From the IMG/VR virus record IMGVR_UViG_2541047751_000001: DNA of 10,720 nucleotides. One strand, 5' to 3'. A model generated the notes under the pieces. That model saw nothing but the letters and a program-made list of their open reading frames with translations. It did not search any database and was not told the origin of the DNA. Of the stretch, positions 7,757-9,832 are shown piece by piece. Within the stretch, counting starts at the first letter, position 1. Each line of letters opens with the position of its first letter. Made by a program: the position numbers and the translations under genes. The stretch is from a virus (Duplodnaviria > Heunggongvirae > Uroviricota > Caudoviricetes).

Positions 7757-8454
7757 TGCAGGATATCCGGCAGGAAACACTGAATGAATGCACCCGTGCG
7801 GAGCAGTCGGCCAGCGTGGTGCTCTGGGAAATCGATCTGACAGAGGTCGGTGGAGAACGTTATTTTTTCTGTAATGAGCAGAACGAAAAAGGTGAGCCGG
7901 TCACCTGGCAGGGGCGACAGTATCAGCCGTATCCCATTCAGGGGAGTAGTTTTGAACTGAATGGCAAAGGCACCAGTACGCGCCCCACGCTGACGGTTTC
8001 TAACCTGTACGGTATGGTCACCGGGATGGCGGAAGATCTGCAGAGTCTGGTCGGCGGAACGGTGGTCAGGCGTAAGGTTTACGCCCGTTTTCTGGATGCG
8101 GTGAACTTCGTCAACGGAAACAGCGACGCCGATCCGGAGCAGGAGGTGATCAGTCGCTGGCGCATCGAGCAGTGCAGCGAACTGAGTGCGGTCAGTGCCT
8201 CCTTTGTACTGTCCACACCGACGGAAACGGATGGTGCCGTTTTTCCGGGGCGCATCATGCTGGCTAATACCTGCACCTGGACCTATCGCGGTGATGAGTG
8301 CGGTTATCACGGTCCGGCAGTCGCGGATGAATATGACCAGCCGACGTCCGATATCACGAAGGATAAATGCAGCAAATGCCTGAGCGGCTGTAAGTTTCGC
8401 AATAACGTCGGCAACTTTGGCGGCTTCCTTTCCATTAACAAACTTTCGCAGTAA
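7756..8454 (+). CDS. L: Tail tip protein L, 232 aa, with C-terminal Cys cluster
   Basis: TGATG overlap with the M stop. 232 aa as in lambda gpL. C-terminal cysteines at residues 173, 182, 205, 208, 212 (CTWTYRGDEC…CSKCLSGC). Confidence 0.9.
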   Translation: MQDIRQETLNECTRAEQSASVVLWEIDLTEVGGERYFFCNEQNEKGEPVTWQGRQYQPYPIQGSSFELNGKGTSTRPTLTVSNLYGMVTGMAEDLQSLVGGTVVRRKVYARFLDAVNFVNGNSDADPEQEVISRWRIEQCSELSAVSASFVLSTPTETDGAVFPGRIMLANTCTWTYRGDECGYHGPAVADEYDQPTSDITKDKCSKCLSGCKFRNNVGNFGGFLSINKLSQ

Positions 8455-8459
8455 ATCCC

Positions 8460-9203
8460 ATGACACAGACAGAATCAGCGATTCTGGCGCACGCCCGGCG
8501 ATGTGCGCCAGCGGAGTCGTGCGGCTTTGTGGTGAGAACGCCGGAGGGAGACAGATATCTTCCCTGCGTAAATATCTCCGGTGAGCCGGAGGCGTATTTC
8601 CGGATGGCTCCGGAGGACTGGCTGCAGGCAGAGATGCAGGGTGAGATTGTGGCGCTGGTCCACAGTCATCCCGGTGGTCTGCCCTGGCTGAGTGAGGCCG
8701 ACCGGCGGTTGCAGGTGCAGAGTGATTTGCCGTGGTGGCTGGTCTGCCGGGGGGCGATTCATAAATTCCGCTGTGTGCCGCATCTCACCGGGCGGCGCTT
8801 TGAGCACGGGGTGACGGACTGTTACACGCTGTTCCGGGATGCTTACCATCTGGCGGGGATTGAGATGCCGGACTTTCATCGTGAGGATGACTGGTGGCGT
8901 AACGGCCAGAATCTCTATCTTGATAATCTGGAGGCCACAGGGCTGTATCAGGTGCCGTTGTCAGCGGCGCAGCCGGGCGATGTGCTGCTGTGCTGCTTTG
9001 GTTCATCGGTGCCGAATCATGCCGCTATTTACTGTGGTGACGGCGAGCTGCTGCACCATATTCCTGAACAACTGAGCAAACGAGAGAGGTATACCGACAA
9101 ATGGCAGCGACGCACACACTCCCTCTGGCGTCACCGGGCATGGCACGCATCTGCCTTTACGGGGATTTACAACGATTTGGCCGCCGCATCGACCTTCGTG
9201 TGA
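8460..9203 (+). CDS. K: Tail tip assembly protein K, 247 aa, with JAB/MPN-like and NlpC/P60-like domains
   Basis: Longest ORF from ATG 8460; an alternative internal start is ATG 8604 (MAPEDW…). JAMM-type motif H-S-H-x7-S-x2-D at residues 68-81 (HSHPGGLPWLSEAD, nt 8661..8702). Downstream Cys (DCYTLF, residue 121) and His (NHAAIY…HH) are consistent with an NlpC/P60 papain-like fold. Confidence 0.85.
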   Translation: MTQTESAILAHARRCAPAESCGFVVRTPEGDRYLPCVNISGEPEAYFRMAPEDWLQAEMQGEIVALVHSHPGGLPWLSEADRRLQVQSDLPWWLVCRGAIHKFRCVPHLTGRRFEHGVTDCYTLFRDAYHLAGIEMPDFHREDDWWRNGQNLYLDNLEATGLYQVPLSAAQPGDVLLCCFGSSVPNHAAIYCGDGELLHHIPEQLSKRERYTDKWQRRTHSLWRHRAWHASAFTGIYNDLAAASTFV

Positions 9204-9772
9204 AAACGGGGGCCGAAGCCATCCGGGCGCTGGCCACACAGCTCCCTGCGTTTCGTCAGAAACTGAGCGACGGCTGGTATCAGGTACGGATTGCCGGGCG
9301 GGACGTCAGCACGTCCGGGTTAACGGCGCAGTTACATGAGACTCTGCCTGATGGCGCTGTGATTCATATTGTTCCCAGAGTCGCCGGGGCCAAGTCAGGT
9401 GGCGTATTCCAGATTGTCCTGGGGGCAGCCGCCATTGCCGGATCATTCTTTACCGCCGGAGCCACCCTTGCAGCATGGGGAACAGCCATTGGGGCCGGTG
9501 GTATGACCGGCATCCTGTTTTCTCTCGGTGCCAGTATGGTGCTCGGTGGTGTGGCGCAGATGCTGGCACCGAAAGCCAGAACTCCCCGTACACAGACAAC
9601 GGATAACGGCAAACAGAACACCTATTTCTCCTCACTGGATAACATGGTTGCCCAGGGCAATGTTCTGCCTGTTCTGTACGGTGAAATGCGCGTGGGGTCA
9701 CGCGTGGTTTCTCAGGAGATCAGCACGGCAGACGAAGGGGATGGTGGTCAGGTTGTGGTGATTGGTCGCTGA
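9101..9772 (+). CDS. I: Tail tip assembly protein I, 223 aa; N-terminal ubiquitin-like region, central Gly/Ala-rich hydrophobic segment
   Basis: ATG at 9101 with RBS GAGAGAGG. Overlaps the K 3' end by about 100 nt in a different frame, as in lambda. 223 aa, matching lambda gpI. Confidence 0.9.
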   Translation: MAATHTLPLASPGMARICLYGDLQRFGRRIDLRVKTGAEAIRALATQLPAFRQKLSDGWYQVRIAGRDVSTSGLTAQLHETLPDGAVIHIVPRVAGAKSGGVFQIVLGAAAIAGSFFTAGATLAAWGTAIGAGGMTGILFSLGASMVLGGVAQMLAPKARTPRTQTTDNGKQNTYFSSLDNMVAQGNVLPVLYGEMRVGSRVVSQEISTADEGDGGQVVVIGR

Positions 9773-9790
9773 TGCAAAATGTTTTATGTG

Positions 9791-9810
9791 AAACCGCCTC
9801 CGGGCGGTTT
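9791..9810 (+). other. Stem-loop in the I-J spacer (AAACCGCC-TCCG-GGCGGTTT) followed by a T-rich stretch
   Basis: 8-bp perfect stem with 4-nt loop read directly, followed by TATCGTTTAT. Could be a weak terminator/attenuator or an mRNA-stabilising hairpin ahead of J. Confidence 0.35.
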
Positions 9811-9832
9811 TATCGTTTATGGAGCATGACGA

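Follow-up and report, generated by a model that had tools for sequence, protein, structure and literature searches.

A JAMM and NlpC/P60 protein and its putative ubiquitin-like substrate in the tail-tip module of a lambda-like phage

The window analysed here, a stretch of 10,720 nucleotides (nt) from a tailed phage (IMG/VR record IMGVR_UViG_2541047751_000001), contains the genes K (8460..9203) and I (9101..9772), which are a known lambda-type tail gene pair: K is a two-domain protease, and I is the precursor of the tail-tip plug protein with a removable ubiquitin-like domain (Ubl). It is very probable that the JAMM domain of K removes the Ubl of I as a checkpoint in tail-tip assembly. The analysis established the domain identities, the conservation of both active sites of K, the start of K as a protein of 247 amino acids (aa), and the conserved synteny of the M-L-K-I-J genes. 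The idea of a K-I processing pair is real and not new, because it was predicted in 2006 by Iyer, Burroughs and Aravind (PMC1779556) and the summary of a 2025 conference talk reports its experimental confirmation; on these reports the mechanism is already known.

Results

In the 10.7-kb window lie the late morphogenesis genes of a lambda-like phage, which follow the lambda order through M, L, K, and I to the beginning of J. In the list of open reading frames (ORFs), K, the tail-tip assembly protease, has 247 aa plus a stop codon, and I, the precursor of the tail-tip plug protein, has 223 aa plus a stop codon; these genes and the parts of them described below are on the + strand. The two genes overlap by 103 nt (9101..9203), with I in the -1 frame relative to K. 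The preliminary description of this DNA had placed the K-I pair at 8460-9772, with I overlapping K, and all its residues and positions agree with the sequence. The stop codon TAA of L is located at 8452-8454 and the ATG of K starts 5 nt beyond it, while GAGAGAGG sits 11 nt 5′ of the ATG of I (9101). The gpK and gpI genes of lambda are the same genes, in the same M-L-K-I-J order and with the same 103-nt overlap. The DNA identity of the K-I stretch to many lambdoid phages is 96-98%; relative to lambda gpI, the I protein has two substitutions in 223 residues (A128T and I164T), and the K protein has seven in 247 relative to resequenced lambda K.

Residues 1-105 of K (8460..8774) form a JAMM/MPN+ (Prok-JAB) metalloprotease domain, while residues 111-224 (8790..9131) form an NlpC/P60 (C40) papain-like cysteine peptidase domain. 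The Pfam family Prok-JAB (PF14464) matched K residues 3-98 with an E-value of 2.9e-14 (53.4 bits, cut-off 25), NLPC_P60 matched K residues 111-224 with 5.8e-13 (49 bits, cut-off 23), and Lambda_tail_I (PF06805) matched I residues 14-97 with 1e-28 (100 bits, cut-off 23.8). These scores are far above the cut-offs, which argues that the K-I observation is not a product of chance. The intact JAMM zinc motif that had been noticed earlier at K residues 68-81, H68-S-H70-x7-S78-x2-D81 (HSHPGGLPWLSEAD, 8661..8702), is indeed read from the sequence, and E19 (codon 8514..8516), the upstream catalytic glutamate of the JAMM site, completes the pattern E...HxHx7Sx2D. The catalytic residues of the NlpC/P60 domain are C121 (8820-8822), which lies within a D-C-Y motif, H187 (9018-9020), and H199/H200 (9054-9059). 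The earlier assignment of the domain and of C121 holds, as judged by Pfam and by conservation, while the histidine needs correction to H187.

A full HMMER scan, run over 1.84 billion representatives, gave 2739 relatives of K, and conservation was compared in a set of 94 full-length representatives with 32-59% identity and in a second set of 135 further sequences. Each of the residues E19, H68, H70, S78, D81, C121, H187, H199, and H200 was either invariant or at least 90% conserved in the 94 representatives, and also in the 135-sequence set. Within the JAMM site of the 94 homologues, H68 and D81 were invariant, while H70, S78, and E19 were at least 90% conserved, E19 being invariant in the alignment of the second set (A4). 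The K family profile matched the solved JAMM proteins 2kks (4e-14), 2kcq (8e-13), and PfJAMM1 (1.3e-11), and it also matched the solved NlpC/P60 enzymes Spr/MepS (5e-7) and CwlO. The AlphaFold2 (AF2) model of K, obtained with a deep alignment, had a predicted local distance difference test score (pLDDT) of 93, with 95-97 over residues 1-40, and a predicted template modelling score (pTM) of 0.85. Both the MPN and the NlpC/P60 folds anticipated for K were recovered in this model; its structure matches include Rpn11 (11.0), Cap3 (9.7), and the BilC deubiquitinase (9.2), and the Foldseek results were concordant. K has the catalytic motif, the profile score, and the MPN fold of a JAMM/MPN+ protein, as well as the triad in family order, the profile score, and the papain-like fold of a C40 enzyme. 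A zinc-dependent (iso)peptidase action of K on the C-terminus of the Ubl is predicted from these sequence features.

In the lambda reference record K has 199 aa, whereas the window and the resequenced lambda genomes contain an intact 247-aa frame. The reference (J02459/NC_001416) is without one G that corresponds to window position 8594 (GGAGGC[G]TATTTCC; lambda ~14267), which puts the first 45 codons of K out of frame. Because this G is absent, K is annotated there from the ATG at 14276 (14276-14875, 199 aa), and some curated records likewise give the short form. The missing G is either a frameshift artefact or a stock mutation. Both G8594 and the intact 247-aa ORF are present in four independent lambda resequencings (PV340536, OM418625, LC730321, and KT232076); G8594 is also present in ev017, and ev017 and resequenced lambda list K as a 247-aa "C40 family peptidase."

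These observations bear on whether the classical 199-aa protein, translated from ATG 8604 (M49), could be the real or the sole K, with the 48 upstream codons untranslated as K. The alignment with NC_001416 places GGAGG (8588-8592), G8594, and this ATG within 8588..8606, so that GGAGG lies 11 nt 5′ of ATG 8604, while ATG 8460 has no Shine-Dalgarno sequence, and the short form has the annotation of the lambda reference and of some curated records on its side. However, that annotation stems from the one missing G, and the four resequencings have an open 247-aa frame. The counts of variable sites at K codon positions 3:1:2, drawn from near-identical lambdoid loci with 75 distinct alleles, were 27:11:6 in codons 1-48 versus 76:32:13 in the remainder, which is the same pattern. 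The Pfam match and the confident part of the AF2 model begin at residues 1-3, the conserved E19 would be dropped by a start at 8604, and the K homologues of six distant loci have their starts 0-30 nt away from the stop codon of L. A K that is solely the 199-aa protein is hardly credible in view of these data. The 247-aa start at 8460 is correct, as had been argued before from the need to include the full MPN fold, and K should be called from 8460 rather than from 8604; the 199-aa K of the reference and derived records is without most of the JAMM domain. An additional minor isoform of K with an internal start is possible, because GGAGG is located 11 nt before ATG 8604.

The N-terminal part of I contains a predicted Ubl (beta-grasp, MoaD/ThiS-like; TAPI family) at residues 14-101 (9140..9403), which includes the C-terminal Gly motif. 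As previously described, this region ends with VPRVAGAKSGG, located at residues 91-101 (9371..9403), and this motif, with G96-A97 and G100-G101, is the candidate cleavage region. It is followed by the Gly/Ala-rich hydrophobic segment that had also been noticed, at residues 102-155 (9404..9565); this segment contains two predicted membrane helices, H1 and H2, which correspond to two stretches with hydropathy peaks near residues 110 and 145. The H1/H2 helices of gpI have been described (PMC11101478). Alignments showed that the length and sequence of the hydrophobic segment differ among homologues. The C-terminal structural domain, at residues 134-223 (9500..9769), corresponds to the trimeric plug in the lumen of the tail tip, which contacts gpJ and the C-terminus of gpH. 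Residues 1-223 of I matched chain I of PDB entry 8iyk with an E-value of 9e-141, the C-terminal part matched the gpI chains of the lambda tail structures 8iyk, 8k35, 8xcg, and 9e7m, and residues 133-222 matched the 90-residue gpI chains of 9e7m.

The AF2 model of I, built with 40 close homologues, was poor, with a pLDDT of 44 overall and 57-70 over residues 14-94. When this low-confidence model was compared using Foldseek, nearly all of the top 50 matches were beta-grasp Ubls, with a best E-value of 1.4e-2; the top match was MoaD (probability 0.99, TMt 0.63), followed by ThiS, Urm1, SUMO, NEDD8, and ubiquitin. The modeling suggests that I's N-terminal domain likely has a Ubl fold. In the 40 close homologues G96, A97, and G101 are invariant, and the pattern G-[AS]-[KG]-x-x-G is retained in seven distant homologues. 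The conservation points to G96-A97 and G101 as candidates for the scissile region.

Three different starts of I are found in databases: the 223-aa form from ATG 9101, a 210-aa form from ATG 9140 (M14; cluster P0133 with 5268 members), and a 190-aa form from GTG 9200. The last was placed to avoid the overlap with K and would remove the first beta-strand of the Ubl. Distant I homologues begin at the position equivalent to M14. In some close homologues M14 is replaced by L or V, which favors the start at 9101. The start to be used for I is 9101 or 9140, and not GTG 9200.

The six distant loci, in which K is ~40% identical, retain the order tape measure-M-L-K-I-J. In five of the six I follows directly after K, and in the remaining one (L087) it is located 162 nt downstream. 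The I proteins of all six have the three-part design of a Ubl, a hydrophobic segment, and a GGV-QML-P...AQG-PVP-YG C-terminal domain, and the junction motif P-x3-G-[AS]-[KG]-x2-G is common to them. Both the synteny and the match of the I C-terminal domain to virion gpI chains identify a lambda-type tail-tip module (L-K-I-J). No ThiF/E1 or UBC family was listed among the immediate neighbors of K (M, L, I, and J) in the window and the six distant loci. At the far edge of L087, a tail-tube-like ORF gave a match to PF16190 (E1_FCCH), but this is not a ThiF/E1 enzyme. The preliminary description had spoken of a processing or conjugation module; the data support processing, while conjugation has to be dropped because no E1/E2-like neighbor is present in the window and the six loci. 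The K-I pair functions like a pair of deubiquitinase and Ubl, and is not a conjugation system.

Two variations in the architecture of I were seen in these comparisons. In a contig of Pseudomonas sp. RIT-PI-AD (L087:3892-5140) two tandem I paralogues, of 202 aa each, are located after a K with JAB and NlpC/P60 domains. In another locus (L088:3713-4681) the I homologue has 322 aa, with an extra C-terminal extension of ~115 residues past the plug domain, which is Gly/Ser-rich at its start.

The K/I overlap was compared among 70 alleles. Of the 14 variable sites, 11 occupy the third position of an I codon and with it the second position of a K codon, where every change alters K; positions 9101-9135 are invariant. 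This distribution indicates that selection protects the N-terminus of I, while the last ~22 residues of K are weakly constrained. In the distant loci K and I overlap by 4, 8, or 26 nt, or are separated by the 162-nt gap.

Fused K-I and L-K ORFs are present in public data (P0015, P0035, P0090, P0117, P0066, and P0084) and make up PHROG families of their own (phrog_28576, phrog_35166, and phrog_30). Most of them are singletons in E. coli assemblies, which is consistent with frameshift errors or decaying prophages. Natural fusions of I were also recorded by Iyer et al. 2006 (PMC1779556). A programmed -1 frameshift that would yield a K-I fusion was considered and rejected, as the K/I frame relation varies in distant loci and the fusions are mostly singletons; a search of the K/I overlap for an X XXY YYZ slippery heptamer found none.

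The 60-nt gap between I and J contains an RNA hairpin at 9780-9826, GUGAAACCGCC-UCCG-GGCGGUUUUAU..., which is followed by a U-rich sequence. Its folding stability is -21.6 kcal/mol (z = -4.5 vs shuffles). A consensus terminator scan did not report this hairpin, which was found by folding; in the record of phage 21, a terminator is annotated in the I-J region.

Discussion

The interpretation of K and I as a tail-tip pair, given already in the preliminary description, is well supported by the data above, and the following mechanism could explain their linkage. I would be made as a three-part precursor consisting of the Ubl (~14-96/101), the two-helix hydrophobic segment (102-155), and the plug (~134-223), whose plug domain would enter the J/L hub as a trimer and seal the tube beneath the C-terminal end of H, the tape-measure protein. 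K would be a non-virion enzyme, whose JAMM/MPN+ domain would bind the Ubl of I in the way that ubiquitin is bound by a deubiquitinase, and cut at the Gly motif closing the Ubl (G96-A97 to G100-G101), so that the Ubl would be released while the C-terminal part of I would stay in the particle. Cleavage taking place after I has joined the tip complex would set the order of assembly. The exact scissile bond in I is one that we infer, and so is the role of the conserved NlpC/P60 active site in K.

Several published observations agree with this mechanism. The Ubl in I and the JAB and NlpC/P60 domains in K were recognized by Iyer et al. 2006, who proposed a cut by the JAB domain at the C-terminal Gly of the Ubl that would set the Ubl free (PMC1779556). 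In cryo-electron microscopy (cryo-EM) of the lambda virion, gpI was built as residues 135-223 (PMC10721106) or 134-222 (PMC12617516), in the form of a trimeric plug that lies beneath the gpH C-terminus, and a second-hand account gives residue 101 as the beginning of the closed-state gpI model (PMC11101478). In F-type pyocins, the N-terminus of PA0640 was detected by mass spectrometry in precursors that had stalled and was absent from mature particles; deletion of PA0639, the gpK homologue, resulted in tip-less tubes (bioRxiv 10.64898/2026.02.24.707460). According to the summary of the 2025 talk from the Davidson lab, gpK cleaves the Ubl of gpI only once gpI has joined the tip complex.

On the other hand, a number of points weigh against a K-dependent checkpoint. 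The direct experimental claim that gpK does the cutting comes from that conference summary only, and there may be contexts in which the N-terminus of I is removed independently of K. Disorder could be the reason why cryo-EM maps do not show the N-terminus of gpI, and the published mass spectrometry table of the lambda virion, with a single gpI peptide (9.9% coverage), gives no information on this terminus. The Ubl fold of I leans on a low-confidence model and on weak Foldseek E-values (~1e-2), and a comparison of the sequence profile of I against the PDB gave no Ubl, just gpI homologues and a spurious thiolase. Finally, the strictly conserved NlpC/P60 triad has no place in the checkpoint model.

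The NlpC/P60 domain could alternatively make K a peptidoglycan hydrolase that aids passage of the tail through the cell wall, as has been proposed for RcGTA g14. Mass spectrometry and cryo-EM did not find gpK in lambda virions (PMC10721106, PMC12617516), and these virions have been reported to be without a peptidoglycan hydrolase (PMC12617516). A cytoplasmic assembly factor cannot reach murein, and a hydrolase would leave both the JAMM domain and the linkage to the Ubl-bearing I unexplained. Because K is not in the virions, a peptidoglycan-hydrolase role is unlikely for lambda.

Another explanation concerns the JAMM domain, which could mainly serve as a counter-defence deubiquitinase that clears the central tail fibre J of Bil-type Ubl conjugates made by the host. 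Amber mutants of lambda K are lethal in ordinary K-12 hosts, which argues against this role. K also adjoins its own Ubl-bearing substrate, I, in every locus examined, the conference summary attributes the cleavage of gpI to gpK, and tip assembly is lost when the K homologue of F-pyocin is deleted, a result for which no Bil system was invoked (bioRxiv 10.64898/2026.02.24.707460). Because the linkage of K and I is obligate, counter-defence as the main role of K appears most improbable.

It has also to be considered that K, perhaps via its NlpC/P60 site, cuts gpH into gpH* and gpHC, besides or instead of I. The protease and the site of this cleavage are explicitly unnamed in PMC12617516, K has a second conserved active site without an assigned role, and the C-terminus of gpH rests directly on the gpI plug (PMC10721106, PMC12617516). 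However, the cleavage of gpH has been reported to occur after tail assembly (PMC12617516), while K is absent from finished particles (PMC10721106). The usual targets of NlpC/P60 enzymes are gamma-D-Glu-type or amidase bonds, and not ordinary peptide bonds. The cutting of gpH by K seems improbable. Somewhat less doubtful, though still tentative, is the broader proposal that the NlpC/P60 site (C121/H187/H199) makes a second maturation cut in the tail, which could be either that of gpH to gpH*/gpHC or a trimming of gpI between residues 101 and 134. If it were true, this second cut would make K a dual-protease checkpoint enzyme.

With removal of the Ubl of I by the JAMM domain as the preferred explanation, the K-I pair would be a natural prokaryotic example of a deubiquitinase-type enzyme that acts on a Ubl without conjugation machinery and orders the assembly of a virus tail. 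This bears on the origin of ubiquitin signaling, as well as on the engineering of lambda-type tails and F-type tailocins.

One comparison is with the F-type pyocin proteins PA0639 and PA0640 (the latter named "tip plug"), which are homologues of gpK and gpI and have the same gene order and plug architecture; PDB chains 25vf_9 and 9l9p_A matched I with E-values of 3e-18 to 5e-21. The F-type pyocin differs in being a tailocin and not a phage, and the preprint describing it names no protease for PA0640. The RcGTA protein g14 is, like K, an NlpC/P60 protein that is encoded between a gpL-like hub and a gpJ-like megatron and is required for tail formation. In contrast to K, it has 150 aa, lacks a JAMM domain, and is not accompanied by a separate Ubl-bearing I; its muralytic activity has been shown, and it is possibly carried inside the particle. 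Compared to JAMM1 of Pyrococcus furiosus with SAMP2 (PDB 5LD9/5LDA) and to the stand-alone JAMM/MPN+ proteins 2KKS, 2KCQ, and AfJAMM, K is different in being fused to an NlpC/P60 domain, and a structural protein carries its predicted Ubl substrate as an N-terminal domain, which would be cut in a linear fusion. The K loci, as seen in the six distant ones, also differ from the JAMM1/SAMP2 system in having no E1-type conjugation partner. While BilC, CBASS Cap3, and Rpn11/CSN5/AMSH remove Ubls that E1/E2 enzymes had attached, the Ubl recognized by K would be encoded in cis within the substrate itself.
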